Positions 12,101-54,534 of a stretch of DNA of 64,000 nt are shown here, one piece after another. Location of the stretch: positions 1 to 64,000 of the IMG/VR virus record IMGVR_UViG_3300034108_000503; one strand, given 5' to 3'. The first letter of the stretch is position 1; each line of letters opens with the position of its first letter. The position numbers were made by a program, and so were the translations under genes. The DNA is from a virus. The notes below the pieces were generated by a model. It saw only the letters and a program-made list of their open reading frames with translations. It had not been told where the DNA came from and searched no databases.

Positions 12101-15100
12101 CAGTGAATGCCCTCGGCATTACAGTCACCGGAGATGCAGCGCAGGATAGAGCAGAAGTGCTTCGCATGTACGGCGAAACGGAAGGCGAGGCATTGCAGAT
12201 TATCTTTGGCGGCATCACGACGGACACTGATTCCGTTGTCGATATGGCTGAACTCGGCGTCTCACTGCTGCAACGCAAGGGACGCAAGACAATCAGGGTG
12301 CAGAACACACCAGAGTTCGCACGCATGGCGAGGGGAATCACGGACGAACAGATCCTCCTTGCCGAAGAGCAGATCACTCAGGCAATTGAAACCACTAGAA
12401 CCCAGACGGGAATCCCAGATGACCTCAAACAGAAAATCACAGCCAAACTTGAGGGAGACCTCAACATCCTCTCCCTCTTCATCGAGTCCCGCGACTCTTG
12501 GCAGAACGGACTCGTTCCTCGCGACATTGGCGTACCTTCGGAAACAAGGCAAGCCACAGCCGCAAGCCAAGCCCCAGCCCAGCAGACAAACCCCGCCGCA
12601 GTAAACGCAGCGTCAGTTGCTGCTGCCGTATCACAAGTTCCCGGCGCATCAATCACTGGTGCCGCGCTCCAACAGGCAGCGAATACTGCTCCTCCGGTTC
12701 CTGTTGAGGTACCTCCTGCTCCTGCTCAACAGCCAGTTGAAGCTGCTCCCGCTGCGACACCTGCCGCCCCGACCGTGGTCGAAGAGCCTGCTGCGGAAGC
12801 GAAGGCAGTCACCCGCGATGCGACGAAGCCGGAACAGATGACGAAAGATGAACTTTCGGCATTCAGAAAATCTGAGGCAATAAAAACAGCTAAAGATGAT
12901 CTTTCAAAAGCAAAAGACGGAACAGATAATCCGTATGCGTTTGGATTCAAAAGCAAAGCGGCGCTAGTAAGGGCAAGAGAAGATGCTTTACAAAAAGCAA
13001 CATCGGAAGATCAAGACCCTGATGTTTTCGGAACTGTCATTGAGGCGGCAAATCAAAAGCGCCCAATATTTGCCGGATTGATTGACTCTCTGAGTGATGT
13101 AGACCGGACAATTTCTCCCGGTCCAATGGGAGAACCAGGCGGTGTTGTGCGATCTGCAAGGAAGCAATTGATCGACAGTATTGAAGAAAAAGGATACGTC
13201 AAAGAAGGTGACCTGTATGTTTTCAAAGGAGAAAGCGAAACCGCTTCCGTAAAAGCAACAGAAGAGCCTGCCGTGGAAGCTCCGGTTGAAGCGACCGTGG
13301 AAACCAAACCAACAGAAGCACCAGTCGCTCCGGTTGAAGCTGCTACTGAACCTGTAGTCGAGCCTGCCGCTCCGAAGGAAGAAGCCCCAGCCACTGCCCC
13401 GAAGGCAGAGGCACCAGTCGAAGAGCCGAAGGCGGCGGTTGATATTGAGTTCGTAGAGGGAGACGCAGCGGAAGACGCTGATATTGTCTTTATGGTTTAC
13501 AGCGCAAATAACTATTACACCCTTTGGTTCAAGCAGAAATCCAAGGACAAGACAGCAAGACCAGTTTATGTAAAGAACCTACCATCAAACGAGAAGGATG
13601 CTTTCTCTGAAGCAAAGCAATACGCATCAAAAATTGCATCAACAGGCAAAATTCCGCAGGCTTTTGTCGGGAAAATTGATGTATACAAATTCAATACTGT
13701 CGGTCTCATCGACAAAGTTGTTGAAAGAGAAAAGCTCTCAACTCCAGTTTCACGGAATCTTGGTGATTCAGAAATCAGGTACGGCGAGTACGCTGGCAAA
13801 ACAATCAATCAACTTTTGTCCGGCGAAGAAAAGGAATTCGATTACGTTTTTTCCAATCTGATCAAAACCAACTTCTTTTCCAGCTACATTGCATCTCTGC
13901 CTGAGTTTGAGATCTTCAAGCAGAAACAAAAAGAGAAAGCCAAGCAAGTAGTCACAAGCGAAAGCAAGGCGGCTCTCAAAAAAGTTGGATTGAATGTATC
14001 AATCAACGAGGAAAGCGGGGAGATTCAGATCTCAGGCAAGACATTCGCATGGAGAGAAAAGCTCTCTTCCGTAAAAGGAAAATTCAACTATGAAGACAAA
14101 TTCTACTCAGTCACCCCAGAAGGATACAGACAACTTGCAGAAGAGATTGGAGGAATTAAGGTTTCTGATGGCGGATACGAGCGAGGCATCCCGGCTTATG
14201 TCACAGATGAAAGATATCGAAGACTTCGCAGAGAACGAGAACAGGATCCTGACAGAAGCGGACTACCTTCCGCTCCTGGACAGTATGTCTCGGTAGGAAC
14301 ACAAGATCTTCTCCGCAAAGGAGAGGAGTCCGGAATGCCTTCGTTTGTTATTGAGGAACAGATTGAAGATGTTGCCTTGATCAAAAGGGCATACACCGAA
14401 GGCAAACCTTTGTTCCTTCTTTCAAGCGAGCCGGGTTCAGGAAAAACCTACGTTCTTGGTGCAGCGATCAGGGAATTGATTGCCGCTGGCGCAAAGAAGA
14501 TCAATTACATTACTCTTAACGAAAACCTGATTGAGCAAATCAAAGCGGATCTTGCTGAGTATGGAATTCAGGATGTTTCGTTCTACACATACGACAGCAT
14601 CAAAAAGAAAGATGTTGGCGAAAGTGATGTTTTGATTTTTGATGAAGGTCACGCAATCAAGAATATCGGGAAAGGAACCGGGAGGGCAAAGAAAGGCGAG
14701 AACTTGATTCGCAGATCAAAGTTCACATTGGTTTCTTCCGCTACGCCATTTGAGAACCCGCTTGAGGTGGAGTATCTTGATGCGGCAGGTGTCTTTGATG
14801 ACAAGAACGAATTCCCGGAGGGGTTTGATGACTTCGTCTTGGCTTTTGGTGGATACGTTTTTTCAGTGACTGACTCAAGAGGAAACACGGTAAGTAAACT
14901 GGAGTTTGCAAGAAGCAAAGGATCAAACGAGGATCTCATGCAGGCCCGCGAGTTCTTCAGAAAGCGAGGAATGCTTACTACAAGAAGAACCAAGCTCGAC
15001 AGCAGCATGGTTGATGTTCAGCAAAAGAAAGTCCCTGCCGACAAATATTACGTTGATATTTTCAACGCCATCAACAAAGCCAAGGAAGACAAACAACTTA

Positions 15101-18100
15101 CCGTTTACGCGAGGCAGTGGTTCGTCAACTTCCAGAAACGACTTCTTGAAGCGTCAAAGATTGACTCTGCGATAGGTGAGGCGAGGAACGCAATCGACGA
15201 AGGAAGATACCCAATCATTTTTGTAGAAACGAAACAAGCAAAGGATTTCGATATCGACAAACTCGTAAAAGATGAGTTTGAGTACCAAAGGACAGTCGCA
15301 AGAGCGAAGATGATGGATGACTCCCCTCCTCCTCGTTCAGCATTTGATCTTCCTCCTGAAGGTGTTGTTGATGTTTTTGAAGAGGCAGTAAAGTCCTTCA
15401 AGATCAAGAATATTTCAATTCCTTCAATCAACGACAAGATCATATCGGCTTTTGGGAAGGAAACTGTTGCGTTCTTTACTGGAGATTTCACGGACCTTCA
15501 GGCGAAGAAGAATCTTTCCGAGTGGAGGAAGGGAACCAAGAAGCTGCTCGTCGCCACAATGGCAAAGGGTGGAACTGGTCTCTCATTGCATGACAAATCC
15601 GGTGATCATCCAACAACGCAGATCAATGTAAATCTTCCATGGTCGGCAACTCAATTCACACAGGTGGCCCAAAGATCCGCTAGGTACGGATTGAGATCGA
15701 AAGCCAAAATGATGTGGCTTTTCACCGACGAGATCGATTTCGACAGGAAGCTCGCAAATCTTGTTGGTGGAAGAATTCAAAGCATGAGCGCTTTGGTTGG
15801 CGGAAAAGAAAGCAAGATCGGAGAGACTCTTGAAGAGTGGAATATTGCAGACACGACTGACTCTGAGCGCAAGGACGTTAAGCCGACAGAGAAGCCAGCA
15901 GAGACAGCAGATGGATCGCCGGATCCAAATGCCACCGATGATCTGAGTGTTTCGCGAAGCACTGGTCTTCCGTACACTCCCGGAGAAGCACGCAAGGCAG
16001 GTGTCACCCGAATCGCCAGCGACCTTGGGTTGGTCAACGGGAACCAGGAATCTGTCTTCAGCGCTCTGGAGAAGATCTCTAAGTCCGGCAACCGCAGGCA
16101 CAGGAAGGTAGCCAAGGATCTGCTCAAGGTTCTGCAAGGCACTGATGTGACCGTCCAGATGATCTCAGTGGATCCATCCAAGAACGGATGGTTCGACCCG
16201 GCAACCGGAACGGTCTACCTCAACCTCGATGGGCCGCATGAAACTGGCATCGTCGAGACGCTGCTGCATGAACTGGTTCACGCCGGAACCGAGAGGGCAA
16301 TCAGCAATCCGGTCACCCCGGCGCAGAAAGCATTGGTGGATTCGCTCCAGAAGCAGATGGATTCCGCAAGGAAGGCGGCAGCGGATCTGATCAAGTCCAA
16401 GCTAGGCAAGGACGTGGATCTGACCAACTGGCGAGGACTGGTCAATGCGGCGAGGATGCTCAATGACTACGACTTCTTCGACGTGGTCTACGGTCTCTCC
16501 AGCCTGAGCGAGTTCGCAACCCATGCGACCACCAGCAAGGCGTTCCAGAAGTTCCTGAGCGGAGTCGGCAAGGATGGCAAACCGCTGGGTCTGTTTGATC
16601 GCTTTGTCCGTGTGATTGCCAAGTACTTCACCGGGCAAACAGACATTGCCACTGATGTCTACAACGACATCATCAGCCTCATTGGATCTGCCGACAAGGG
16701 ATCGGTGCGGATGCCGAACATCAACCGTGAGAAGTTTGGCGGGTTGGTTGGAAAGCCTGCGTCCGAATCCAGAGGTGTCACTCCTCAGATGGATGCGGAG
16801 TATATGTCCGCCGTTGAAGGCGGCGACACCAAGACCGCACAGAGATTGGTGGATCAGGCTGCGAAGGCGGCTGGGTATAATGGTGATCTTTGGCATGGAA
16901 CAAAATCTGAAAAAATAGGTGAGCTTTCCTTTGATGAATCAAATGAAGGATTTCATATCGGAACCAAAAAGGCCGCCGCAGAAAGACTGAAGTACATAAA
17001 TAAAACGCTTCCAGAAATGCGGCAGTCTAAGGATAACCTAATCAAAGTTTCAATAAAAGGAAACTACTTGACTGTTCCTGATGTCGGATACGGATATCTT
17101 GTTGACTGGATTGGAGCCGCTCAGGATGCGTTGCCAGTTGAAGGCCAGGAGATTGATGATCCATTCGATGTTACGCAGGAGCAATTCACTGAGTGGCTCA
17201 TGAAGAATGGGTACTCTGGGTTGAGATATGTAAACGAAATAGAAAATGCAGGAAGTACTAGTTATGCTGTATTTGATTTTGGTAGCGTGAAATCAACTGA
17301 GCCGATCATTAAGGACGACGCTGGTAACGTCATCCCGCTCTCCCAGCGCTTCAATCCTCAGTCTCCAGATATTCGCTTCTCCGAATCCAGAGGCATCATT
17401 GACCAGCAGCTTGCGCTCTACGCTCCGGACCTCAAGGTCTTCGTCGAGCCTGGGGTCAAAGATCCGATTGCGTACAATGGCATCGGCCTTGTGATCAACG
17501 AGGAAGCGGTCAGCGAGATGGACGAAGACGACGTGCGCCTCCAGACCCAGCGTGCCGCTCTTGCGTCGAGGTTTGCCGCTGACAACCCGCTGGCTGCGGA
17601 TGTGATCCAGAAGCCTGACCTGCTGTTCCCTGCGCTCATGGGTGATTCTGTGCGTGCTGGAGTGGCGAGATCGCTGATGGATGCCAGTCGCTTTGCTGCC
17701 GACAATGGGATGCAGCCTCTTGCGATGGATCTTGGGACCAAGGCTGATGCCTTTGGAGCCACCGGGATCATGCTGTCCGAGGCGAGAGGAGTGCCACCTG
17801 ATGGAGTCAGAAGGTTTGATCTTGTGGATGCTGTCCGCGCAGCAAAGGCTGGCGAAGCGTCCACTCCATTTGTTGCCCTGAACGAGGCGATCAACGCAAA
17901 CACCGAACTCACGCGACGGATCAGGGCTGAGAGTGAGCGGAGGAAAGCACCATACGCCAGAGGCAAAGGAGCGATCCTCCAGCAGATCATCACAGCAGGT
18001 AATTCCGGGCGTCTTCCAAAAGAGGCAATCAAGCCAATCACCGACTTTGTGAACTCGGTATCGGAGAAGGCTCTGGAGGATACGAGAATCTCACTGTCCG

Positions 18101-21100
18101 TAAAGCCAAAGAGCAGCACATTCGATTTCACGGAGTCCCTTGTGACTTTGGCTCTGAACGGTCTCGGTTCTTCTCCGAATGAGATTGACCGGACTGCTGT
18201 TCATGAATTCTGGCATGGTCTCTCCCGCTTTATTCCCGATGAGGAAATCGAGAAGATGCGCGTTGATTACGTCAAGTTCGTCAAGAAATACATCGCCAAG
18301 AATCCGTGGTTCGTTCCGTTCATTGGAAGGACGCACTTGAATGAGGATCAGTACGACGATTTCTCCAGGATGCTGTCCAAAGAGGAGATGGACTCAATCC
18401 CGTGGAAAGAATGGGAGACTCTTGATAACGGGAAGCGGGTGCGCGGAATCAAGTGGGACAAGGAGAACTACCGTCTCTTCCGCCTTGATGAGTGGGTGGT
18501 TGAAACCATGGCGGATCTGGTGCGCCGAAAGCAGGAAAGACCAACGACTGTCCTTGGTAAGATGGCTCGCCTGATCCGGGACTTCATTGACACGCTGAAG
18601 CAGGCTCTCGGTGATCCGTACCTGCGTGCGCTGGATGCGATGACCATTCCGGACGAGGCGTTCAATGCCGTTATCGAAAGGGATGGTCCAATTGAAAACA
18701 ATCCTCCCGTGATGTACGGAGGCGTAGCCGAAGGGATGAACAATCAGTTCGTCCTCGGAATGTACGCTGGCGAGAAGTCGCTGGAGAATATGCCAGAAGA
18801 ACGCAGGGCGTTCATGCAGGATTCCCTGAATTCAGCAAGAGCAATGGCTGCGGCTGGCAAGACAAGCGAGGAGATCCGTGCTGTGACCGGATGGTTCCCC
18901 GGAAAGTACGACGGCAAGATGCGGTGGGAAGTGCCGGATAATGAAGCGGAACTTAGGCTTTCTGAATACAGACAGAAAAGAAAGGACGGAAGCTCACAGG
19001 AGGATATTGTCCGTGAATTTTTTCAGGCAAAACAGCAATCCGCAATGGAGCTTGCATTAAAAAAAGCATACAATCTTAAAGGCAAAGACTTGATTGATTT
19101 TAGCCGTAGGTTTGATTCTGAAAAGAAAAAAGAAAATCTCGGGGTTTATTCGTTTTATCTAAATGAGGAGAATAGAAGCCGAGGAAGAATTCCTCTCAGC
19201 TATATTCTTAAGCATGATCAATTGTTTGATCTGTACCCAGAACTTAGGTTTATGCCAGTGTCGTTTAATGCAGACGACATGGAGGCAAGTCCATTTGCCA
19301 TTGGCGCATTCAACAGTAGTTTTAATGGAATTTCACTAAATCCAATATATGCTTTTGAAAATGAACAGGATGCTTTATCGACTGTTCTACATGAAATTCA
19401 GCACGCAATTCAAAAAACGGAGGATTTCGCAAAAGGAGCATCTCCGGATTCATATTTGTTTGCTGATGTTGCATATAAGGATTGGCTTCTCAGGGCAGAG
19501 CTTGTCCAGCTTTCAGATGAAATGAACAAGCCGCTATCTGAGGCTGTTGAAATGTATAAACCATTCCCTCAAGATTACGAATCATTGCAATCAGCACTCA
19601 AGGCTTATAATTCAGATAATGATTTCAAGGATTCCGTTTCAGTAAATATTAAATACTGGAAACCAAGGGGTTCTGTAAACATGTTTGATGCGTACACAAA
19701 CACCGCAGGCGAAATCGAAGCCCGTGATGTTCAGGCAAGGCAAGCATTGACACCCGAGCAGCGTGCCGCTGTTGCACCATACAGCAGCGAGAACATCGCT
19801 CCGGAAGATGCGATTGTCAGCTACTCAACCGCCAGAGGCTACACCCCGGCACCCGGCACATATGTTGCGGTCCCATCCAGCGGATGGATGGCGGCGACCG
19901 GATGGATTGCGTCGAAGTTCAGATCCAGAGGCAACCTCACTCAGGCTGGGCTTGAGGTCACGATCATGAACGAGCAGGAGAAGAAGGCGGCAGCAAACGC
20001 GGCACGCTTCCTTGGCAATAATCTCGGCAAGCAGATTGAGAAGGTCTTCGGAAGGACCGAGAAGGACACCAAGAACTTCCGGGTGTTCACGACTGATGCC
20101 AGCGGCAAGCCCTCGTTTACCAGACCGTATGCGTCTCGGGCCGAGGCCGATGCCTTTGCTGCGAAGATGGGGTACACCGACTTCATGGTAGCCACCCCGG
20201 AGGAACTGATGAACATCGCCCTCGGGAACAGCATGCCGTCGCTGACTCCGAAGCAGGAGGAGGAGCTTGAAGCTATTCGCGAGCGCGGGATTGCTGCCGT
20301 TCAGGCGAAGACCGACAAGCTCACCGAGCAGTACCTCCGCGATAACGCTGCCCTGATTGAGAAGATTCGCAAGTCCGGCGGAACTGCTGCGGAACTCGAC
20401 AAGCTCAAGGACAATCGTGAGATCTTCCAGAAGGAGATGCTCAAGTACAACGATTCCCTGAAGGCTCTCTTTGAGGAAAAGTACAAGGAAGTGAACCGCA
20501 AGTTCATGCTGGAGAACAAGGAGAAGTTCCTTTCGCTTCAGGCGAACGCCAAGATGTTCCTGCCGGATTCCATCCTCAATGAAATCGAAGAAGCCAGGGC
20601 GGCTATCGACGGCAGGTCCAGGGAGATTGCCGGGATCGACTACCTGATGAAGGACGGCATGATGCGGATCGTGTTCTCAGCACAGGAGGGAATCTACGTC
20701 ACCCGTGCATACGAGGCGTTTGAGGCGAAGAATCGTGAGGACTACGTTAACTTCCTGAACGAAGCGTACCGCTCCACGGTCGAAGGCGAGATGGTTGGCG
20801 GTAAACCGCTGAAGTACCGCGAGGTTGCGCGTGAGCGGATCACTCCGCTGGTGAACGTCCTCACCGGGAAGATCATTGAGAAGCGGGCAAAGGACATCAT
20901 TGCGGAGCAGAATGCTGACATGGTCAGCGATCTCCGTGATGAGATGAGGATCATGGATGAGAAGTCCATGTACAAGAAGGACAGGAAGGACAAGGAGATG
21001 GACATGTACTTGTACCTGAGCGACGAGTACATTCTGGTCAGGGCAAAGAATGAAGTGAAGCGCAGGCGGGCGCAGTACCGCAGGGAGTTCATCCGAGGGA

Positions 21101-23916
21101 TTGCCAACTACCTCGTCAGTAATCCCGCCCTTCTCAGCCTTCCTGCTGGTGCAGGGAAGAAGGAGATCCGTGCTGCTGCCATGAAGATGGGGCGGGATGC
21201 CTACAATGACCCTGATTCGTTTGATAAACTGATCACCGACTCCGCAATCGACCGGATCAAGCTGCTGAAGTACAAGCTGATGCCGCTGGGTGATGCGCTC
21301 ATTCAGGCTCAGAATGAATACCAGATTGCCGAGAAACTCCGGAGGGCTGGCAAGCCGGACACATCTGGAATCAAATGGCGCACGTCCATCGGGAACAATC
21401 AGAAGCAGAGCTTCATTGAAGCGCTCAACTCGGACTTCCAGAAGAACCTGGACTTCATCCTCGGTGCGCCAGTCAGCGGATCCGGCGGCAAGGGAGTAGC
21501 CGATAGCTGGCAGAAGCTGAACGATGAGATCCTGATGCATCGCGACAACATTCCGGCGTACATGCGGAAGTTTTGGGGAGAGACTGAGTCTCCGATTCAG
21601 CGGATCACCCAGACGATCACGAAGCAGGCATCGCTGATTGCCGACTCGGTGTTCCGCGAAAGGATCGCCAGCCTCGGACTGGAAGAGGGGTGGGCCGTGA
21701 AGAAGGAGGACTACGACAGTAACCCAAACAAGTACCCAGGCTACAAGCGAATCATCGAGGGCGACGAAGGCTACGAGGACAATCCTCTGGCTGACCTCTA
21801 CGTTGACGGCAACATCTACAACTCGCTGGAGATCCGCAGGTCCGGCAATCAACCATCCAACGATGCATTCAAGTTCATCGGATACTGGGTTGGTGCTGCT
21901 CTCTGGAATGCGACATCCGGTTTGATGCGTGGTGCTGTCCGGAACCTTGCGTCCTTCCCGGCATGGGGAATGAACTCTGGTCAGAACCTTGCCAACCCGA
22001 TCACCATGGCGCGTGTGATGTCCAACTTCGGTATCGCATCCGGAGCAATCGCTGAACACCTTGCCACCGTGCCAAGAGTGAAGGGTGGAACCGAAGGCGA
22101 ATTTGTCGGTTTGAGGTGGAGCAAGAACCTGATCGGCACTGCGCTTCAGGCATACTCATTCACTGGTCCTGGGTCGAAGATCTTCGGAGGAATCTCCGGT
22201 ATCCTCGGATCAATCTCCAATGTGACTGGCAGGGCGGAAAAGGAATCAGACCGCAAGGCGTTCCAGGATCTGTACACCAGGGCAGTCAATGTCGGTGTTG
22301 CTGACAACAACATTGAACGGAACGACATGGCAAGACTCCTCGGGTACGAGGACGAACTCACCCGCAGACCAATCACTGGAGGCAAACTTGCCCGCTTCCT
22401 GCCATCGTGGATGCGCCCTGATGACATGCAGGGTGCATTGGATTACCTCGTACAGACAGCCAAGTCCACGGCAGGGAACCGTACCGAGTACTACTCATCG
22501 ATGGACTCGCTGACCAAGATCACGTTCTGGCTCAGTGAGATGGAGGAGCAGGCGAAGATCCACGCCAAGGACAAGGCTCAGTTCAATGAGTGGCGCGGAG
22601 AGAACGGCATGTTCCAGAACCTTCCGAAGGAGCTTCAGATCAAGGCCGCGAACAACATCAATGACACCATCCAGTCTGACTCTCGGGTTCTGGAAGGCGT
22701 GAACCAGTTCCGTAAAGCCGGATGGGGTAAGATCCTCTCTCCGTTCCTTGCGTCGAAGACCGAATTCATCCGCACTGCCCAGAATTCCTACCGGATTGCG
22801 CTGGATGAAATGAAGAACGGTGTGAACAAGAAGGAGAAAGCCAGGGGCGCAAGGCGTCTGGTTGCTGCGCTGACTGGTCACATCGGATACTCTGCTGTCG
22901 CATCGTTCCTTGCGGTCACCGTCATGCGGATGGTTGGTGGCGGGGACGATGAGGAGAAGGAAGGCGTGACGCTCGACGGTTCGCAGATTGATTCGCTCCG
23001 GAAACTGCTGCCAGAGTGGGCGCAGAATAAGGTGCTGGCTGGACGAGCATACGCCAATGGCGAGATCGACTGGGCTGACGTTTCCTTCCAGCTTCCGTTT
23101 GGATGGATGAACGAAATCTTCATCTCCGGACAGAAGGCAATCGACAAGAGCAACGCGGAAGACATCCTCGCTGCCGAGGTCACGATGCAGATCGTGTCTG
23201 ACTTCATCGGCAACTTTGCCTCCAGGCAGATTGCAGTTGAGGCTGCATCCAATGCTCTTTCTGGCTTCGACCGGATCCGGAACAAGACGATCTGGGAAAA
23301 GGACGACAGTGTCTACGTCAAGATCGCTAAGGGGATCAAGTACTACTTGAATTCCGCAGGGTATCCCGGTGACGTTCGTGATGCCATCAAGATGTACAAG
23401 GCTGCATACGGGATCGAGGAGAATGGCAGCAAGTACAAGATGGATGCAGTCCTCCTGTCCATGCTCACTGGTCAGAGCATCCGCACCCAGAAGATCGACG
23501 AGATGTACCTCTCTCAGATGCGGCAAGCCCAGGATGATCTGCGTATCGTGAACCGATCCCTCTACCAGTCGGCTCTCCGGGATGCCAACAACGTGGAGCC
23601 TGAAGATGTCGCAGCCGACACGAAACTCGCCATGACCCGCCACGCCGAAACCATGCGTGAACTCGGGCAGATGTTCTCCTCGGCAACAAGCCTGCTGGAG
23701 ACTGGCGGCATGGCTCCAATGGATGCCAGAAAGAAGATCCTTGCGATCATGCGAAGCGAGAAGGTCAAACTCAGCCAGCGTGATGAGCGGGCAATCGCCA
23801 ACCAGTACATCCCGCCATGGCGAGGATCAGATGTCACCGAGAGGGAAATCCGCAGGCTCGACCGCAAGCATAACGACGGTCGCTTTGAGGCTTACCTTGA
23901 CGCGATCCGCAGGTAA
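9193..23916 (+). CDS. Giant (4907 aa) polyvalent internal virion protein: Strawberry-notch-type helicase, 3 HExxH peptidase-like modules, ART-like and LPD23-like modules
   Basis: Single uninterrupted ORF. Helicase motifs: Walker A EPGSGKT (14428), DEGH (14641), SAT, GGTGLSLHD and LPWSA..Q..QRSAR. Other motifs: HELVH (16267), WHGT (16891), HEFWH (18202), TGWFPGKYDGKMRWEVPD (LPD23-like) and HEIQH (19390) with GEIEAR. Confidence 0.85.
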   Translation: MESIDGTGLPSQPQTQPQAPKKWSEIEQESLIYSLPPEQRMPIFDQWVKDTQNYQLQAGGFDNPESFQKFKLKELQTRRRLSSEIGADPTPEEVNADYDNYVNIISSEQQRLAAKAPDEKAYKDVIDGNRGAAFVGGQIVFNPKVTKDPTAYRKALAESDAPDDIKLIYAGKRDEEDKKSVVTRRNELASRVITPKVADKVVSAIQEGNEILGFDVGTPQSPAIVKDKAGTWSVVDPDYVNWDESIVGGIATKVLPAANAQYKPMPELNEFQKKYGLTDEEIQTDYLEALKRSAPTSISRWVTNADSLEDYVPVLNSKVRVLDPDVKPKVFVPNADLAFDKEAYDAVVDKAKAPDEAKALAKETRTQIAESIAAPTFDLLLRNRDDFAPYAKDAKDPQAKVAAVSRYYKDKKDQAWYNDIGEFFSQGIGGIGTGLTRLVNLANVVPAMFGDVEAAERAAAVQKAENEKAQAAEMVGSRMGAPTTIKLTRDVAAVLPDLAAQIVISMATGGLGASAAAGSLAARTGVSYTAARGAISAAMANAERGAVRAAVSRIPSIAAGSVDDLADAAIATAKQMSSKNPLKGGLGLQQAVSAATAGMSSMGGTFPEVYSQLRNEGMAPAKALDAARNAAAISGAITGLITYGFSAAGAGGAEDIGTMSQRKAGDFTVRDLVAAGLPDVLRSEYGKQAVIKTARGILGKAGSEGLEEGLDQFIGGISQYLTNPSAEAQDKKVSDIIQESLYAGALGFIVGGGAAVGGQIRQTAGGLTAAQIEAEMAGLTGAPPAPPAPATPPPPVAPAAAPPAAGSTPPAPAAPGAAAVPPSPAPPPAGAATVVSPTGTTTVSTAAPSTVVSAQPPGATRLATRLASQFGVDITTVTPSGANNTVTPNDIRNAARQKQLAEAEQNGVAPPEELPLPPPPPNPLLSEAVGMQIQYEGYEGTLIDDEGRPALQTPDGTVIDIPATFLADEAVNALGITVTGDAAQDRAEVLRMYGETEGEALQIIFGGITTDTDSVVDMAELGVSLLQRKGRKTIRVQNTPEFARMARGITDEQILLAEEQITQAIETTRTQTGIPDDLKQKITAKLEGDLNILSLFIESRDSWQNGLVPRDIGVPSETRQATAASQAPAQQTNPAAVNAASVAAAVSQVPGASITGAALQQAANTAPPVPVEVPPAPAQQPVEAAPAATPAAPTVVEEPAAEAKAVTRDATKPEQMTKDELSAFRKSEAIKTAKDDLSKAKDGTDNPYAFGFKSKAALVRAREDALQKATSEDQDPDVFGTVIEAANQKRPIFAGLIDSLSDVDRTISPGPMGEPGGVVRSARKQLIDSIEEKGYVKEGDLYVFKGESETASVKATEEPAVEAPVEATVETKPTEAPVAPVEAATEPVVEPAAPKEEAPATAPKAEAPVEEPKAAVDIEFVEGDAAEDADIVFMVYSANNYYTLWFKQKSKDKTARPVYVKNLPSNEKDAFSEAKQYASKIASTGKIPQAFVGKIDVYKFNTVGLIDKVVEREKLSTPVSRNLGDSEIRYGEYAGKTINQLLSGEEKEFDYVFSNLIKTNFFSSYIASLPEFEIFKQKQKEKAKQVVTSESKAALKKVGLNVSINEESGEIQISGKTFAWREKLSSVKGKFNYEDKFYSVTPEGYRQLAEEIGGIKVSDGGYERGIPAYVTDERYRRLRREREQDPDRSGLPSAPGQYVSVGTQDLLRKGEESGMPSFVIEEQIEDVALIKRAYTEGKPLFLLSSEPGSGKTYVLGAAIRELIAAGAKKINYITLNENLIEQIKADLAEYGIQDVSFYTYDSIKKKDVGESDVLIFDEGHAIKNIGKGTGRAKKGENLIRRSKFTLVSSATPFENPLEVEYLDAAGVFDDKNEFPEGFDDFVLAFGGYVFSVTDSRGNTVSKLEFARSKGSNEDLMQAREFFRKRGMLTTRRTKLDSSMVDVQQKKVPADKYYVDIFNAINKAKEDKQLTVYARQWFVNFQKRLLEASKIDSAIGEARNAIDEGRYPIIFVETKQAKDFDIDKLVKDEFEYQRTVARAKMMDDSPPPRSAFDLPPEGVVDVFEEAVKSFKIKNISIPSINDKIISAFGKETVAFFTGDFTDLQAKKNLSEWRKGTKKLLVATMAKGGTGLSLHDKSGDHPTTQINVNLPWSATQFTQVAQRSARYGLRSKAKMMWLFTDEIDFDRKLANLVGGRIQSMSALVGGKESKIGETLEEWNIADTTDSERKDVKPTEKPAETADGSPDPNATDDLSVSRSTGLPYTPGEARKAGVTRIASDLGLVNGNQESVFSALEKISKSGNRRHRKVAKDLLKVLQGTDVTVQMISVDPSKNGWFDPATGTVYLNLDGPHETGIVETLLHELVHAGTERAISNPVTPAQKALVDSLQKQMDSARKAAADLIKSKLGKDVDLTNWRGLVNAARMLNDYDFFDVVYGLSSLSEFATHATTSKAFQKFLSGVGKDGKPLGLFDRFVRVIAKYFTGQTDIATDVYNDIISLIGSADKGSVRMPNINREKFGGLVGKPASESRGVTPQMDAEYMSAVEGGDTKTAQRLVDQAAKAAGYNGDLWHGTKSEKIGELSFDESNEGFHIGTKKAAAERLKYINKTLPEMRQSKDNLIKVSIKGNYLTVPDVGYGYLVDWIGAAQDALPVEGQEIDDPFDVTQEQFTEWLMKNGYSGLRYVNEIENAGSTSYAVFDFGSVKSTEPIIKDDAGNVIPLSQRFNPQSPDIRFSESRGIIDQQLALYAPDLKVFVEPGVKDPIAYNGIGLVINEEAVSEMDEDDVRLQTQRAALASRFAADNPLAADVIQKPDLLFPALMGDSVRAGVARSLMDASRFAADNGMQPLAMDLGTKADAFGATGIMLSEARGVPPDGVRRFDLVDAVRAAKAGEASTPFVALNEAINANTELTRRIRAESERRKAPYARGKGAILQQIITAGNSGRLPKEAIKPITDFVNSVSEKALEDTRISLSVKPKSSTFDFTESLVTLALNGLGSSPNEIDRTAVHEFWHGLSRFIPDEEIEKMRVDYVKFVKKYIAKNPWFVPFIGRTHLNEDQYDDFSRMLSKEEMDSIPWKEWETLDNGKRVRGIKWDKENYRLFRLDEWVVETMADLVRRKQERPTTVLGKMARLIRDFIDTLKQALGDPYLRALDAMTIPDEAFNAVIERDGPIENNPPVMYGGVAEGMNNQFVLGMYAGEKSLENMPEERRAFMQDSLNSARAMAAAGKTSEEIRAVTGWFPGKYDGKMRWEVPDNEAELRLSEYRQKRKDGSSQEDIVREFFQAKQQSAMELALKKAYNLKGKDLIDFSRRFDSEKKKENLGVYSFYLNEENRSRGRIPLSYILKHDQLFDLYPELRFMPVSFNADDMEASPFAIGAFNSSFNGISLNPIYAFENEQDALSTVLHEIQHAIQKTEDFAKGASPDSYLFADVAYKDWLLRAELVQLSDEMNKPLSEAVEMYKPFPQDYESLQSALKAYNSDNDFKDSVSVNIKYWKPRGSVNMFDAYTNTAGEIEARDVQARQALTPEQRAAVAPYSSENIAPEDAIVSYSTARGYTPAPGTYVAVPSSGWMAATGWIASKFRSRGNLTQAGLEVTIMNEQEKKAAANAARFLGNNLGKQIEKVFGRTEKDTKNFRVFTTDASGKPSFTRPYASRAEADAFAAKMGYTDFMVATPEELMNIALGNSMPSLTPKQEEELEAIRERGIAAVQAKTDKLTEQYLRDNAALIEKIRKSGGTAAELDKLKDNREIFQKEMLKYNDSLKALFEEKYKEVNRKFMLENKEKFLSLQANAKMFLPDSILNEIEEARAAIDGRSREIAGIDYLMKDGMMRIVFSAQEGIYVTRAYEAFEAKNREDYVNFLNEAYRSTVEGEMVGGKPLKYREVARERITPLVNVLTGKIIEKRAKDIIAEQNADMVSDLRDEMRIMDEKSMYKKDRKDKEMDMYLYLSDEYILVRAKNEVKRRRAQYRREFIRGIANYLVSNPALLSLPAGAGKKEIRAAAMKMGRDAYNDPDSFDKLITDSAIDRIKLLKYKLMPLGDALIQAQNEYQIAEKLRRAGKPDTSGIKWRTSIGNNQKQSFIEALNSDFQKNLDFILGAPVSGSGGKGVADSWQKLNDEILMHRDNIPAYMRKFWGETESPIQRITQTITKQASLIADSVFRERIASLGLEEGWAVKKEDYDSNPNKYPGYKRIIEGDEGYEDNPLADLYVDGNIYNSLEIRRSGNQPSNDAFKFIGYWVGAALWNATSGLMRGAVRNLASFPAWGMNSGQNLANPITMARVMSNFGIASGAIAEHLATVPRVKGGTEGEFVGLRWSKNLIGTALQAYSFTGPGSKIFGGISGILGSISNVTGRAEKESDRKAFQDLYTRAVNVGVADNNIERNDMARLLGYEDELTRRPITGGKLARFLPSWMRPDDMQGALDYLVQTAKSTAGNRTEYYSSMDSLTKITFWLSEMEEQAKIHAKDKAQFNEWRGENGMFQNLPKELQIKAANNINDTIQSDSRVLEGVNQFRKAGWGKILSPFLASKTEFIRTAQNSYRIALDEMKNGVNKKEKARGARRLVAALTGHIGYSAVASFLAVTVMRMVGGGDDEEKEGVTLDGSQIDSLRKLLPEWAQNKVLAGRAYANGEIDWADVSFQLPFGWMNEIFISGQKAIDKSNAEDILAAEVTMQIVSDFIGNFASRQIAVEAASNALSGFDRIRNKTIWEKDDSVYVKIAKGIKYYLNSAGYPGDVRDAIKMYKAAYGIEENGSKYKMDAVLLSMLTGQSIRTQKIDEMYLSQMRQAQDDLRIVNRSLYQSALRDANNVEPEDVAADTKLAMTRHAETMRELGQMFSSATSLLETGGMAPMDARKKILAIMRSEKVKLSQRDERAIANQYIPPWRGSDVTEREIRRLDRKHNDGRFEAYLDAIRR

Positions 23917-25561: not shown

Positions 25562-25589
25562 GTTGTTTTTTATGTGTGATCTTTTTTGG

Positions 25590-25799
25590 TTACGCGCACC
25601 ACCTGCAAAATTCAATATCAAATGCTTTGAGTACGGCTTTGGCTTTTGCTGCCAATGATTTATCGGTGACGGCACAGAGATGTTTCACGAAATCCTTAAG
25701 CAATTCGTCCTCAAGAAAATGAGCCATCTCATCATCCACTTTACTTGATGCATATTGTTTGATTTCTTTGACGCGATTTCTGATTTCTTCAATGGTCAT
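25590..25799 (-). CDS. Hypothetical protein
   Basis: Compact, AT-richer ORF in the operon (DEMAHFLED...F.RWCA). Confidence 0.65.
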   Translation of the reverse strand: MTIEEIRNRVKEIKQYASSKVDDEMAHFLEDELLKDFVKHLCAVTDKSLAAKAKAVLKAFDIEFCRWCA

Positions 25800-25803
25800 A
25801 TTT

Positions 25804-26031
25804 TTATTTCAGGTGATCTTTGACGGTAGTAACCGCTCCATGCAGAGCAAGTTCAATATCCTTGAATGGTCTCTGTAGTTTTCTGTTTTCGTAGAACATG
25901 ACGAAGAAGTCTTCGATGACTTCCATGTCCGAGGTGAATTCATCAATCACTTCTTTGTCCCACTGCTTATGCTTGCATGTGGGATCATTAAGGATTTTCT
26001 CGGCAATGGCGATGAATTCGTGAACTTCCAT
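25804..26031 (-). CDS. Hypothetical protein
   Basis: Tight operon packing. Confidence 0.6.
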   Translation of the reverse strand: MEVHEFIAIAEKILNDPTCKHKQWDKEVIDEFTSDMEVIEDFFVMFYENRKLQRPFKDIELALHGAVTTVKDHLK

Positions 26032-26037
26032 GGTATG

Positions 26038-26157
26038 TTACTGGCAGCTTTCGCAGTCTGGGTTGTCCATTGAGCAGGCAGGTCCAAGGGTGATGTCCCC
26101 GAAGTCGTCTTCGGGATCTGACTCAGGCTGATTATCGGTCTGTTGGTTTGGTTCCAT
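26038..26157 (-). CDS. 39-aa acidic peptide ending ACSMDNPDCESCQ (RNR-alpha C-tail-like)
   Basis: Fills the gap between two genes, and the ATG at 26157 overlaps the upstream gene end. Confidence 0.6.
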   Translation of the reverse strand: MEPNQQTDNQPESDPEDDFGDITLGPACSMDNPDCESCQ

Positions 26158-26347
26158 CTTCTTTGTGGGTGATAACGAAAATCGGTTCGCCGTTCTCATC
26201 GGCCCGGTACTCGGCAATGCCATTGCGAATCAGGACGGCCCTGTAGTGCTTCAGTTGGTCGTTCTGGGGGCTTGTGGCTGTGCAGAGAAAACCACCAACA
26301 AAGCCAATACCAGAGAAAAACAATCCAATAAGAAACTTATCATTCAT
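26132..26347 (-). CDS. Small membrane protein
   Basis: ATGA overlap. N-terminal TM segment (FLIGLFFSGIGFVGGFLC). Confidence 0.6.
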   Translation of the reverse strand: MNDKFLIGLFFSGIGFVGGFLCTATSPQNDQLKHYRAVLIRNGIAEYRADENGEPIFVITHKEDGTKPTDR

Positions 26348-26650: not shown

Positions 26651-28000
26651 CTATTTGCGCCATGCCTTCTGGGGTTTCTCCTGCTTCCTCCTTGGCGGAT
26701 CGTCGTCATCCTCGAAACGCTGGAGCGCACCATTCCGGCGGACTGCAACGCTGCGGTTGGATGCACCGAAGCGGTTCTTGAGGATCTTTATCCTCCCGGT
26801 ATCGGCAGTCTCCTCGTTTCCGTCCTCGCTTTCGTGGACATCCATGTCGATCCGAAGGAACACCTGCGGAGCATCAAGGATTGCCCTCGCGTCACGGATC
26901 ATGCCGTCGTCATTCAGTTGGACCGGAGCGATGAGCGTGCATCCCAGTTCCTTCCGCAACCTCTCTGCCGTCTCGGAGATTGTCTTGAGCATCTGATCCG
27001 CCCGCTCGCCGGAACGCTGGGCAACAGGCACAAGCTGAAGGTAGTCGATCACAATGAAGTCCAAGGGCTTCTTTCGGTGGAGGTTCCTGGCGTGGGAAGC
27101 AACGCCTTCCAGCGAGATGTACGGTGATTCGGTGTAGTGCAGATCCCATCTTCCGAGGGACTCAATGGCTTTCTGGATTCTGGTGAAGTCACCCTGTTCC
27201 CGCAGCGGGGTGCGGCCCATCACCTTGTCGAGAGGGATACCCGACTCCCGTGCCAGATCCCGCATCACGATCTGGATTGCTGACATCTCGTAGCCAACCA
27301 CGAACCCGCGCCTTCCAGCGCACGATAGTCTGCCAGCCATCTGCATCGCCAGCAGAGTCTTCCCGTGTCCCTGCTTTCCTCCGATCAGGATGTACTCCCG
27401 ACGGATCCCTCCAGCCAGCAATTCGTCCAGTCCTTTGATCCCGGTCGCGATGGCAGGATCAACGTCAGTCTCCACTCCCTGCTCGATGATGTCGATGTAG
27501 CGAAAGAGGACATCCTTGATTGGAATCAGGTTCGCGCTCCTGCTCTGGACGGTGGCGGTATCCAGTTCCCGGATCATTACTCCAACCTTTTCTCTCCAGT
27601 CATCCGGCCCATCGTAGGCGACAGCCTCCAGCCGGGACGCTATCTTTGCAACGCTACGGCGTCTGGATGCGCTCCTGACGGCTTCGCAGTATGATCGTAC
27701 CGCAGACGGCGCAGACGCTGCTGTGGCGATTTCCGAGATGGTTCCCGCGCCCCCCACGGAATCCAGCTTCTGAGCGTCAATCAGGTGGGCCGTAAGCGAG
27801 ACAGCATCCACCGGGTTTCCGTCAGCGTGGCGGGAGATGATCAGGTCGAACAGGTAGGCGCAGTGTCCGGTGACGAAGTCCGAGGACTTGATGATCTCAA
27901 TCGCCTGGTCGATGGCGTACTCCGGTGCCTGCATCAGGCAGGAGATGACTGCTCTGTCCATTTCCTCCGACCCCGGAGGCTTCTTCAGTTCATGGTTCAT
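26651..28000 (-). CDS. dnaB: Replicative DNA helicase, DnaB family
   Basis: DnaB N-terminal domain (PVDAVSL...LDSVGG), Walker A GKQGHGKT, YEMS, IDYLQL, QLN and KNRFG arginine finger. Confidence 0.9.
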   Translation of the reverse strand: MNHELKKPPGSEEMDRAVISCLMQAPEYAIDQAIEIIKSSDFVTGHCAYLFDLIISRHADGNPVDAVSLTAHLIDAQKLDSVGGAGTISEIATAASAPSAVRSYCEAVRSASRRRSVAKIASRLEAVAYDGPDDWREKVGVMIRELDTATVQSRSANLIPIKDVLFRYIDIIEQGVETDVDPAIATGIKGLDELLAGGIRREYILIGGKQGHGKTLLAMQMAGRLSCAGRRGFVVGYEMSAIQIVMRDLARESGIPLDKVMGRTPLREQGDFTRIQKAIESLGRWDLHYTESPYISLEGVASHARNLHRKKPLDFIVIDYLQLVPVAQRSGERADQMLKTISETAERLRKELGCTLIAPVQLNDDGMIRDARAILDAPQVFLRIDMDVHESEDGNEETADTGRIKILKNRFGASNRSVAVRRNGALQRFEDDDDPPRRKQEKPQKAWRK

Positions 28001-28012
28001 TTATTGATGTTG

Positions 28013-28939
28013 TCAGAATGGTGCCTTGATCCGCTGACGCTTCTCGTTGATCTCCACCCTCATCGTGGCAGCGACAACCTCCGCGTAGTTGAGGCAGAAG
28101 AACGACGGGTCGTGAGCTTTCGTCAAGCACCCTGGGGCATACGGTTTCGTGGATGCCTGCATCGCATCGTGGTACGCATCAAGAAATTCATCGGCAGTCC
28201 CGTTCCACCCGGCAAGGAAACGCTGGAGGACTTTGGCGAACTTTGGCGAGAACGGAAATGGTTTGCCTGTGACGTGGGTGTACGGCTGGGCGATCTGGGA
28301 AGTGATCTCATGGTGCCGGGGATCCTTGGTCTCGACCGGAGCAGTTGCTGGTCTTGCTGGTTCCTTCCGTGGAACGGAAACCTTCGCCACCACCTCGGTA
28401 TGTCCGTCAGGACCGAAGAGGAAATCTCCTTCCTCGGACTCCTTCCTCTTGTAGTTGTCTTTACTATTATCCTTATCCTTATCCTTACCTTTACTATTAC
28501 TATTACTATTACGTTGAAGGACTCCTTCAGGGACTCCTTCAAGGACTCCTTCAAGGACTCCTTCAAGGACTCCTTCAAGGACTCCTTCAAGGACTCCTTT
28601 GGATTGCACCTTGGATTTCCCACGAAGAAGACCACCCTTCTTTCCGCCTTCCCGTTTAGCCTTAACGACTTGCTCGCTCTCAATCGGGTAGCGCCACACA
28701 ATCAGGTCTCCATTCTCCCCCCAGGACCAGAGTGGGCATTGCTGGTCAACCTCGGATCGAGTCAGACCAAGAGCCAGCCACTGCCGATCAGTCCAAGAAC
28801 GTGCGTTACTGATAACTCCACCGTTCTCGTGGGTGCAGCAGTACTTCAAAAGATATAGCCAGGTCGCCCGTTGGACGGGTTCCGCGCCGATCATTTCCGG
28901 CTCTTCAAGCTGCGTGATCTTGATGTTGATCCAATTCAT
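28013..28939 (-). CDS. Replication initiator protein (lambda O-like layout)
   Basis: Directly upstream of dnaB. N-terminal HTH-like region, then GGKKGG, then an internal iteron-like repeat array. Confidence 0.7.
   Translation of the reverse strand: MNWINIKITQLEEPEMIGAEPVQRATWLYLLKYCCTHENGGVISNARSWTDRQWLALGLTRSEVDQQCPLWSWGENGDLIVWRYPIESEQVVKAKREGGKKGGLLRGKSKVQSKGVLEGVLEGVLEGVLEGVLEGVPEGVLQRNSNSNSKGKDKDKDNSKDNYKRKESEEGDFLFGPDGHTEVVAKVSVPRKEPARPATAPVETKDPRHHEITSQIAQPYTHVTGKPFPFSPKFAKVLQRFLAGWNGTADEFLDAYHDAMQASTKPYAPGCLTKAHDPSFFCLNYAEVVAATMRVEINEKRQRIKAPF
28461..28600. repeat. Probable replication origin: AT-rich hexamer repeats plus 7 x 12-bp iterons
   Basis: (TTACTA/TTATCC)n at 28461-28512, then AAGGACTCCTTC x7 at 28517-28600. 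Confidence 0.75.
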
Positions 28940-52144: not shown

Positions 52145-52627
52145 TTAGGAAGTGAAGTGACGGGACCAGAATGCGTCATCCGTCCTCATGATGATTTCAC
52201 GGCTCGGGAACTTGTCTTCAATCTCAGGAAAGAACGCATCCGTGTAATTTACGTCGTAATTCAGCATCGTCAGGTACAGTTCGTCGAGATTTGATTCAAG
52301 CAGCGTCCAGATCTCCACACCTCCGATCACCCAGATGCTGCCTGGGTATTCCGGCTTATCAATGGCAGTGAGCGCAGAAAGCTCATCCATGTCTCTCGCA
52401 ATCTCAATCCCGTCGCACGGCTTCATCGTTCTGCTCATCACGATGTTCCTCCTGCCTTTCAGAACGGACGGTAGAGATTCCCAGGTCTTCCGGCCCATGA
52501 TGACGGTTCCCCCCATGGTCATCCTCCTGAAGAACCTGAGGTCTTCCGGTAGATACCAAGGGATGGTTCCGTTCAGTCCGACTGCCCGGTTCTGCGCCAT
52601 GGCGGCGATTCCAATCCACTTCTTCAT
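52145..52627 (-). CDS. folA: Dihydrofolate reductase
   Basis: IPWYLPEDLRFFR..T.G..VIMGRKTWESLP..L.GR.NIV.SR, VIGG and DAFFP. Confidence 0.95.
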   Translation of the reverse strand: MKKWIGIAAMAQNRAVGLNGTIPWYLPEDLRFFRRMTMGGTVIMGRKTWESLPSVLKGRRNIVMSRTMKPCDGIEIARDMDELSALTAIDKPEYPGSIWVIGGVEIWTLLESNLDELYLTMLNYDVNYTDAFFPEIEDKFPSREIIMRTDDAFWSRHFTS

Positions 52628-53436
52628 ACGGCTACCTTTCCTTTGATTGCTGGATGCGGATCGTACCCGACAAGGTCGAAGTCCTCAAACTCAAAGCTGT
52701 CGATGTCCCAGTGGCGACCGTGGATCGCAAGAATCGGGGGAGCCTTGATTGGTCGCGAGATCTGCTCCCTGACTTGGTCGTAGTGGTTGCTGTAGATGTG
52801 GGCATCTCCCACGCTGATCGTAAGGATCCCCGGTGTCAGTCCGGTGATGTGAGCCACCATGTGCGTCAGCAGGGCGTAGCTGGCAATGTTGAACGGCATC
52901 CCGAGGAACATGTCGGCAGACCGCTGCGTCAGCATGCAGTCCAGACGATTGCCTGAGCGCACCGAGAACTGGTAGAGCATGTGGCATGGAGGCAGTGCCA
53001 TCTTTGGGATATCGACTGGATTCCATGCGCTCACAATGATCCGGCGGGAATACCGATCCTGCTCAATGAGGCGGATTGCTTCCTTCAACTGGTCGATCCC
53101 CTCCTTGCCCCAGTTCCTCCACTGCTTGCCGTACACCGGGCCGAGTTCTCCATCGGTCGATGCCCACTCGTCCCATATGGAGACTCCGTGCTTCTGTAGA
53201 TCCACGATGTTGGTGCTTCCGGAGATGAACCACAGGAGTTCGTGGACCACGGACTTCATGTGGACTTTCTTCGTGGTGAGGAGCGGGAATCCTTTGGAAA
53301 GATCAAACTTCATCATTTCCCCAAAGATGCTGGACGTTCCCGTGCCAGTGCGGTCATATCGTTTTTCTCCGTAATTCAGGATATTACTGATTGCGTTGAT
53401 GTACTCTTCTTCGTTCGATGTATCAAGTCTGTTCAT
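52624..53436 (-). CDS. thyA: Thymidylate synthase
   Basis: DRTGTGT, FPLLTTKK, ELLWF, LGPVYGKQWR, SRRIIVSAWN, LPPCH, QRSAD..LG.PFNIASY and GDAHIY.NH. Confidence 0.97.
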   Translation of the reverse strand: MNRLDTSNEEEYINAISNILNYGEKRYDRTGTGTSSIFGEMMKFDLSKGFPLLTTKKVHMKSVVHELLWFISGSTNIVDLQKHGVSIWDEWASTDGELGPVYGKQWRNWGKEGIDQLKEAIRLIEQDRYSRRIIVSAWNPVDIPKMALPPCHMLYQFSVRSGNRLDCMLTQRSADMFLGMPFNIASYALLTHMVAHITGLTPGILTISVGDAHIYSNHYDQVREQISRPIKAPPILAIHGRHWDIDSFEFEDFDLVGYDPHPAIKGKVAV

Positions 53437-53774: not shown

Positions 53775-53977
53775 GCGATTCGCGTGAGGTGTGCGTACTT
53801 GGTATTCCTGCCGCCATTGTAGACCTGATTGCAGCGCATGCAGCGTTCACGCTTCTGCCACTCCTTCCAGCTACAGTGCTTCGTGGGCCATATCTTCTCC
53901 CGGCAGTCAATGCAGTGATGGATCGCGTGATCCCTCCAGCCGACTGGCGGTTTCTCCAGTGATCGGTCGATCTTCAT
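53771..53977 (-). CDS. Small Zn-finger protein
   Basis: CIDC ... CMRC, with ATGA overlaps. Confidence 0.6.
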   Translation of the reverse strand: MKIDRSLEKPPVGWRDHAIHHCIDCREKIWPTKHCSWKEWQKRERCMRCNQVYNGGRNTKYAHLTRIA

Positions 53978-54534
53978 TCGGCTCCAGTGGCTGAGTTCTT
54001 CTTCCAGTCCCGCTTCGACACGATGGACTCCCAGGTCTCAATGATCGTGGCAGTCAGATCAACGCCAACCTTGTTCGCTACCCGGTAGACCAGCGCCATG
54101 AAGTCGGTGATCTGATACCGGACGGCATCCACGAAGACCGCATCCTCAATGCTCATCAGGTACGCAACCTGAAGGTGCTTTACCCCGCAGGTCAGCCGGA
54201 TCAGTTCCGTCTCGGTCGAGTGTTCGCTGACGTAGCTGTTCTCAGCACGCAGAAGGACATCCACGAACCGGACCCCTGCCTTCGTGCAGAAGTGCATAAG
54301 GTAGATGGACACGTCAGCCAGAGCATCGCGCATGTTCGCCTGATGTTCCTCCGGGGTGCCACGGATTCCCTGCTTCCGCTTCAGGAATGAGTGGGAGAAC
54401 TCACCGATCTCCTCAATCACTCCGAGGACCGGGTCGATCTGGTTCTCGGCAGTATTCGCGCCGAAGTTCTGGAAAGCCCACTCCTTGTGCTGGTCCTGGA
54501 CTTCGTTGATTTTCGCAATGGTTTCCGATGTCAT
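53974..54534 (-). CDS. MazG-like nucleotide pyrophosphohydrolase
   Basis: W...NFG, GVIEEIGEFSH..LK..QGIRG, DALADV.IY and W..V.KRDW. Confidence 0.8.
   Translation of the reverse strand: MTSETIAKINEVQDQHKEWAFQNFGANTAENQIDPVLGVIEEIGEFSHSFLKRKQGIRGTPEEHQANMRDALADVSIYLMHFCTKAGVRFVDVLLRAENSYVSEHSTETELIRLTCGVKHLQVAYLMSIEDAVFVDAVRYQITDFMALVYRVANKVGVDLTATIIETWESIVSKRDWKKNSATGAE

Follow-up and report, generated by a model that had tools for sequence, protein, structure and literature searches.

Only ribonucleotide reductase (RNR) makes deoxynucleotides de novo, and phage DNA synthesis has a bottleneck in this enzyme. To our knowledge, phages have so far been believed to rely simply on the host enzyme unless they carry an RNR of their own. 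The locus described here raises the question whether a phage that has no RNR gene encodes a detached piece of the enzyme, and what such a piece would do to the RNR of the host. In class I enzymes, according to an excerpt of PMC9669993, the disordered C-terminus of the alpha subunit (NrdA) carries a Cys pair that reduces the oxidised active site. This pair mediates between the catalytic cysteines and thioredoxin or glutaredoxin, as a part of PMC6382339 describes.

The window, that is the whole stretch of DNA analysed, comprises the first 64,000 bases of a virus record of 72,271 bases that is rated 100% complete. The phage was present in DNA runs labelled lake water. One run labelled RNA-Seq was probably DNA, and the contigs from four runs were used only to add sequence variants.

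The peptide gene and its surroundings

The following features were located in the window.

26038..26157, minus strand: peptide ORF of 39 aa with an ATG start at 26157 and a TAA stop at 26038-26040, supported by translation and by relatives
26113..26157, minus strand: N-terminal 15 residues of the peptide, polar/acidic and poorly conserved (P3T and S13P in relatives)
26101..26112, minus strand: EDDF, an acidic-hydrophobic "anchor" motif with its Phe nine residues before the first Cys
26041..26079, minus strand: Cys tail ACSMDNPDCESCQ, with C-x6-C-E-S-C-Q at the extreme C-terminus, an NrdA-like redox tail
26132..26347, minus strand: upstream gene, product of about 72 aa beginning MNDKF, N-terminus hydrophobic, no Pfam family
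25804..26031, minus strand: downstream gene of 75 aa, starting 6 bases after the stop of the peptide
26651..28000, minus strand: DnaB-type replicative helicase (PF03796, E 2e-31, and PF00772)
52145..52627, minus strand: dihydrofolate reductase (PF00186, E 6e-37)
52624..53436, minus strand: thymidylate synthase (PF00303, E 8e-113)
53974..54534, minus strand: MazG-like protein without the tail (PF12643, 26.6 bits, just below the cut-off of 27)

Translation of the minus-strand ORF 26038-26157 gave MEPNQQTDNQPESDPEDDFGDITLGPACSMDNPDCESCQ followed by the stop. An alternative frame from 26223 would yield 61 aa in the window; a stop shuts this frame five codons before the ATG at 26157 in three of four relatives, and the 39-aa form is therefore the supported product. 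A 39-aa protein called by gene callers elsewhere (P0002) was 95% identical to the peptide. The back-translated tail pattern occurred once in the 64-kb window and in none of 100 dinucleotide-preserving shuffles, and its occurrence is not due to chance. A frameshift fusion with the upstream gene was considered and dropped, because no slippery site was seen by eye and the frame is closed by a stop in three relatives.

The peptide gene lies about 500 bases downstream of the DnaB-type helicase, in the same long co-directional replication block, and its first 26 bases are shared with the end of the upstream small gene. Scanning for promoters and terminators revealed no promoter-like or terminator-like sites on its strand nearby. 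An obvious Shine-Dalgarno sequence was absent from all 18 gene starts inspected in the phage, so its absence from the peptide gene is uninformative. The regions upstream of these 18 starts were mostly A-rich, which hints at a host with initiation independent of Shine-Dalgarno sequences.

The peptide matched no Pfam family at E up to 1. The region had no blastn match among GenBank phages, and tblastn against the same phages recovered only nrdA in two records labelled Acinetobacter phage (E 2e-3), the rest being chance matches at E 8-9. A word-based homologue search for longer proteins, which requires three shared 5-mers, returned nothing; RNR tails were found instead with phmmer and DNA patterns. 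Unnamed clusters of 39-43 aa in the Protein Atlas, at 0.90-0.93, were taken as a lead only.

Several other features of the genome were recorded. A single ORF of 4,907 aa occupies positions 9193-23916 (plus strand), which is very large for a 72-kb phage. Beside DnaB, at 28013-28939 (minus strand), lies a gene for a 308-aa protein with a run of GVLEGV repeats and then an N/S/K/D-rich stretch; it matched no Pfam family, and a homologue also adjoins DnaB in locus L052. Contigs of runs X9 and X23 skip 231-232 bases within 25568-25800; these bases hold a 69-aa gene (25590-25799), which some relatives therefore lack. A 5,088-base contig of run X23, at the high depth of 1,239, matched only 38 tail-coding bases of the window (26039-26076), with 3 differences. 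It was unlike the window on both sides of the match and presumably carries a tail-coding gene of another organism.

Likeness to NrdA and conservation in relatives

Among solved structures, the sole matched chain was the RNR large subunit 5im3_A (963 aa), which we take to be NrdA of Pseudomonas aeruginosa; the E value of 0.18 was weak since the match is short. The last 15 residues of the two proteins align terminus to terminus, and 11 of the last 13 are identical. A variant, ACSIDNPDCESCQ, differs from the tail of the peptide by a single residue, Ile for Met (12 of 13 identical), and it ended NrdA in all 27 cellular-genome matches of one scan. NrdA proteins with this variant came from Verrucomicrobiota, Pseudomonadales, Planctomycetota, Actinomycetota and others, and it also terminates many virus-encoded NrdA proteins. 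The exact tail with Met was present in one cellular genome only, an Ectothiorhodospiraceae MAG. Neither 'GPAC' plus the tail nor the narrow pattern for NrdB ends ...N[IV]EDDF was found in any cellular genome.

The peptide carries C-x-x-D-N-P-[DE]-C-E-x-C-Q-stop, the sequence element of NrdA tails, at its exact C-terminus. It has no PF02867 barrel. The whole 72,271-base record has no match to PF02867 (large subunit), PF00268 (small subunit, the NrdB partner) or PF13597 (class III), and no thioredoxin or glutaredoxin gene was found in it. Judged by its sequence, the peptide is homologous to the tail element of NrdA and is itself no RNR. It shares with the NrdA redox tail, for example that of 5im3_A, the arrangement C-x6-C-E-x-C-Q, the same terminal residue and a flexible, often acidic stretch before it; unlike that tail it has neither a catalytic body nor an nrdB partner, and it is encoded by a phage without RNR.

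The initial annotation, which had described a 39-aa stand-alone peptide with an RNR-alpha-like tail, is borne out by the translation, by 5im3_A and by the matches to NrdA tails, and its statement that the window holds no RNR extends to the complete record. It had also named thyA, folA and MazG; the first two are clear, and the third keeps its borderline score. NrdJ, which it had counted among the bearers of such a tail, has to be struck from the list, as every enzyme with this tail in our searches was a class I NrdA.

Some peculiarities of NrdA and NrdB genes were noticed in these searches. Two inverted copies of the end of the same 992-aa NrdA frame lie on one 7.6-kb viral contig (L114:868-906, minus strand, and 6673-6711, plus strand), possibly an assembly artefact or an inverted duplication. 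L087, L090 and L093 come from Verrucomicrobiales / Akkermansiaceae MAGs, and the NrdA tails of L090 and L093 read ...AVDETFTPGPKACSLDNPDCESCQ. Their NrdB ended in ...DDDDL (L087 and L093) or ...NDDDY (L090), acidic endings that are unusual, ...SWD being the common type.

The ORF was kept in all four IMG/VR contigs whose DnaB is 95-100% identical to that of the window, and it is thus conserved as a stand-alone gene. Across these four relatives and two metagenome variants, the last 15 codons showed three synonymous differences (GGA/GGG, TGC/TGT and CAG/CAA) and no amino-acid difference, and the first 24 codons showed three amino-acid changes (P3T, S13P and I22T) beside synonymous ones. Summed over pairs, the tail in the family of the window had 4 synonymous and 0 non-synonymous differences, at a small divergence; conservation within this family is by itself modest evidence for a gene. 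The relatives carry three different genes directly 3' of the stop codon, where synteny ends exactly, and metagenome contigs break at 26036-26042. A mosaic boundary thus coincides with the end of the peptide ORF, which is what a gene unit should show.

In the close relatives L002 (5679-6053, plus strand), L004 and L001, the gene that immediately follows that of the peptide encodes a small Cys-rich protein (MNDYWNDPP..PECC..) and is missing from the window. The N-terminal domain of the Cys-rich protein is joined to the tail module in a protein of about 77 aa (L052:2885-3118, minus strand, and L058), and L052 shares the replication genes of the window.

The tail module on other viral proteins

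A pattern search for the tail among small viral ORFs, which the initial annotation had proposed, showed that the peptide is one of many bearers. The same module of about 25 residues ends at least ten other types of small viral protein, among them peptides of 30-46 aa, a 120-aa family and about 27 MazG pyrophosphatases; in all, 36 distinct non-NrdA tails were collected in about 10 architectures. In a phmmer search of 1.84 billion representatives, P0005 (81 aa, E 6e-6) and P0006 (101 aa, E 7e-4) ended alike besides P0002; two low-complexity matches were discarded. A metagenome scan gave 25 loci, namely 21 NrdA (two fragments included), three closed short ORFs of 86-119 aa (L010, L011 and L013) and L017. 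The last (6531-6644, plus strand) is a 37-aa ORF ending in ...PPACSIDNPDCESCSG, just after a peptidase-like gene; it overlaps a 172-aa ORF in another frame, and is a candidate gene only, given this overlap.

A first scan of IMG/VR with D-N-P-[DE]-C-E-x-C-Q-stop gave 35 loci, 23 of them NrdA and 12 short non-NrdA ORFs. The short ORFs comprised four of the family of the window, four of the family of about 120 aa, two of the protein of about 77 aa and two of a peptide of about 30 aa. With the broader pattern C-x-x-D-x-P-[DE]-C-E-x-C-x-stop, 105 viral stretches matched and 70 new loci were fetched: 24 clear NrdA, 40 short ORFs and 6 unclassified (two NrdA-like, three MazG-type ORFs open at the 5' end and one too short to call). 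The 40 short ORFs were made up of 27 MazG pyrophosphohydrolases of about 154 aa, eight more members of the 120-aa family, four 46-aa peptides and one 64-aa protein. The identity of the MazG fusions follows from PF03819 (E 2e-10 for L140), and MazG was the only N-terminal domain among the other tail-bearing proteins that Pfam recognised. The MazG fusions of L140 (5277-5738, minus strand) and 26 further viral loci (e.g. L157, L125, L151 and L179) have an acidic linker and the Cys tail ...KDDDDLDGVKVERTCRIDDPECESCQ.

No closed short ORF with the tail was present among the 44 matches in 185,579 cellular species genomes, where all matches that could be judged were NrdA. In the five loci whose neighbours were read, the module stood beside replication or recombination genes, most of the neighbours being named by eye from their N-termini. 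These architectures argue that the module is shuffled among small phage proteins. Its three Cys were retained in 11 of 11 aligned representatives, and the S, D, N, P, D/E, E and Q of the NrdA tail were also conserved, as was the exact C-terminal end.

The selection acting on the two largest groups is summarised below as pN/pS, in uncorrected pairwise proportions with synonymous sites near saturation.

MazG fusions (23 distinct sequences): Cys tail, 12 codons, 0.10; anchor plus spacer 0.36; linker 0.43; body 0.18
120-aa family (11 distinct sequences): Cys tail, 12 codons, 0.11; anchor plus spacer 0.12; body 0.26

The Cys tail is at least as constrained as the protein bodies to which it is attached and is under strong purifying selection.

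None of 21 module-bearing viral records had PF02867; six of them were at least 90% complete and 15 incomplete, and the count stands with no background RNR rate for comparison. The viral pattern scans gave no contig with both an NrdA tail and a non-NrdA tail. That the module and an own RNR exclude each other in phages is suggestive only. Glutaredoxin and thioredoxin were also absent from five near-complete module-bearing records, and because they were absent from the genome of the window as well, any redox partner must be that of the host.

The module differs from NrdA tails in a second element. Among the 36 distinct non-NrdA tails, which come from about ten architectures and hence are not independent, 33 had a [DE][DE]-hydrophobic motif placed exactly 8-9 residues ahead of the first Cys. 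Of 92 distinct NrdA tails, 1 had it there and 91 did not. One architecture (L127) and L017 lacked it; every other architecture had it. The peptide of the window conforms to this composition, with EDDF (Phe at -9), the C-terminal Cys tail and no RNR barrel. The distribution fits a docking element that is needed only when the tail is untethered.

Two origins of the anchor may be considered. NrdB proteins encoded beside NrdA with the same tail ended in ...NIEDDF, ...GALVDDF, ...GALDDDF, ...DDDDL or ...SWD, and the anchors of the module (DDF, DDL and EDW) are the same kinds of acidic-hydrophobic endings. The anchor may thus imitate the beta tail, although EDDF is internal and has 20 residues after it, whereas the NrdB motif ends the chain. 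Just as well, the anchor may be an elaborated form of a similar acidic-hydrophobic motif that stood 6 residues before the first Cys in 13 of 92 NrdA tails. NrdA tails of the CEAC type paired with Trp-ending NrdB in 15 of 15 distinct operon pairs, and the single CEAC-type module, one case only, has a Trp anchor, a hint that the type of anchor co-varies with that of the tail. The EDDF element, the fusions to MazG and other domains, and the restriction of this tail type to NrdA were not part of the initial annotation.

Possible roles in the infected cell

We tentatively read the ORF as a genuine gene, its product being a functional copy of the class Ia NrdA redox tail, detached from the enzyme, that may serve as a spare shuttle for the RNR of the host. 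The peptide would be produced early, alongside the replication genes. EDDF would dock it on host NrdA in place of the covalent tether of the native tail, and the Cys pair (C-E-S-C) would swap disulfides with the active-site cysteines. Host thioredoxin or glutaredoxin would then recharge the pair. Such an extra tail would sustain or speed the turnover of host RNR, and the phage would rely on the dNDP supply of the host. We lean to a spare shuttle because a phage with thyA and folA and without RNR should want more RNR output from its host. Since the complete redox pair is strongly conserved, disulfide exchange appears still to matter, and since the anchor is present only in untethered copies, it would most simply compensate for the lost tether by docking on NrdA. 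More generally, phages probably use the tail to plug into the host's supply of DNA building blocks.

Three points stand against a shuttle. Tethering keeps the native tail locally concentrated, and added free tail need not then raise turnover. The module is found on MazG, an enzyme not known to need a reductant, which is more in line with a docking tag than with the shuttling of electrons. An NrdB-like anchor, if placed at the site of the NrdB tail on alpha, would compete with beta and inhibit. The argument is weakest on the direction of the effect, and blocking is nearly as likely as boosting. The initial annotation had proposed a trans-acting tail that boosts host RNR or acts as a decoy. Its trans-acting part gains indirect support from the recurrence of the module, from purifying selection and from the 21 records without an RNR large subunit; boost and decoy both stay candidates. 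A complex prediction with an alignment of the peptide and residues 1-790 of a viral NrdA, whose own tail was removed, scored 0.02 against a mark of 0.32 and is evidence neither way. If the peptide is a booster, it would represent a new kind of auxiliary metabolic gene, of a sort that annotation pipelines miss since such ORFs are short and belong to no family.

It is somewhat unlikely, though to be weighed closely, that the peptide is instead a competitive decoy that binds host NrdA without productive electron transfer and throttles host RNR, as Sml1 and R2 peptides do. Many small early phage proteins inhibit host enzymes. Inhibition could arise in several ways, with the anchor in the site of the NrdB tail, with the Cys tail in the path to the active site, or by soaking up reductant. 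EDDF matches the NrdB ends ...NIEDDF and ...GALDDDF, which are encoded beside NrdA with the same tail, and there is a precedent in the heptapeptide P7 (Ac-FTLDADF), the R2 C-terminus, which, as given in part of PMC3483043, inhibits mammalian RNR by competition at R1. An acidic run ending in Phe is common to P7 and the phage motif; the latter is internal and followed by an alpha-type Cys tail, and the likeness is at the level of sequence.

Yeast Sml1 is a second precedent, which the excerpt of PMC6382339 describes as a competitive R1 binder that blocks R1 reduction activity. Like the phage peptide as we read it, Sml1 is small, separately encoded and involved in the renewal of the active site by the C-terminal Cys pair of R1 (same excerpt). 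It is nevertheless eukaryotic, an inhibitor and not a copy of the tail, and the two are likened by function only.

Against a decoy, these phages lack an RNR (0 of 21), and thyA and folA need deoxynucleotides that are derived from RNR or recycled, so that throttling host RNR brings no obvious benefit. A pure blocker would need no complete redox pair, yet the three Cys including the full C-E-x-C pair are strongly selected. The anchor is internal, unlike the free C-terminus of NrdB, and a derivation from NrdB is not required, given the similar motif at 6 residues in some NrdA tails. Should the peptide prove to be a blocker, it would be a natural lead for inhibitors of class Ia RNR.

A bolder and again unlikely possibility would combine both elements in a bivalent mimic. 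The beta-tail-like anchor (EDDF, DDDL and EDW types, tracking the types of NrdB ends) would sit on host NrdA and the alpha-tail Cys pair at its active site, which would make the module a portable RNR-docking tag. Alone it would rewire or throttle host RNR; on MazG and other enzymes it would assemble a complex for a dNTP pool under phage control. The docking tag is proposed on the basis of the fusions to MazG. A cyanophage MazG prefers dGTP and dCTP, as stated in a part of PMC6850273. If true, the bivalent mimic would make these peptides a class of viral host-takeover agents, as yet undescribed and widespread among aquatic phages without RNR.

It is quite improbable that the module is directed at the reductant, with host thioredoxin, glutaredoxin or NrdH being recruited or sequestered for the attached phage protein and RNR not being the target. 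The native tail is a substrate of thioredoxin and glutaredoxin (PMC6382339, in the part cited above), the module occurs on varied cargo domains, and with no phage thioredoxin or glutaredoxin found, those of the host would serve. The forms of 30-46 aa, however, have no cargo, and native NrdA tails should then share the anchor, which only 1 of 92 has at that spacing. We also know of no requirement of MazG-type pyrophosphatases for a disulfide reductant.

It is less probable still that the small Cys peptide, whatever its origin, now binds metal or has another role unconnected with RNR. Three Cys and acidic residues could bind metal, and the next gene in relatives is Cys-rich, its N-terminal domain being fused to the module in L052 and L058. 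Conservation of the non-Cys residues and of the exact C-terminal end argues, on the contrary, that recognition by the partners of the NrdA tail has been retained.

Least probable, and largely refuted, is a vestige without function, left when a phage nrdA was deleted except for its 3' end, with an ATG retained by chance: the tail certainly derives from an NrdA gene, and phage NrdA with this tail is common in viral contigs (23 of 35 loci in the first IMG/VR scan), but no trace of nrdA was present in the ORF, upstream of it, elsewhere in the genome or in relatives, which also lack RNR; the gene is tightly packed between its neighbours with only synonymous changes in the tail; and the module occurs on unrelated proteins at a pN/pS of about 0.1, with an anchor absent at its spacing from NrdA tails.

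Returning to a detached recharging tail under selection, often borne by MazG or other small proteins, such a device would be a new and very cheap control of a bottleneck, at about 25 residues. It makes two questions testable: whether the alpha tail is fully functional in trans, and what recognises it, the conserved anchor pointing to a docking site. No description of free-standing or MazG-fused RNR tails was found in the full-text literature, a search that largely leaves subscription journals outside its coverage.

Two known systems are related in kind. The TSCPD or cysteine-rich C-terminal domains of class II RNR (PF12637) also occur as separate small proteins; these are folded domains with four Cys, unlike the peptide, which has three Cys in a tail of class I type and no Pfam match. 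GrcA (YfiD) is an autonomous glycyl-radical cofactor of the pyruvate formate-lyase system, and Y06I of phage T4 is alike. The enzyme is a different one there, the chemistry is that of a glycyl radical and there is no sequence relation, but the concept is the same, a free-standing functional C-terminal segment of a large enzyme, which likewise occurs in phage.
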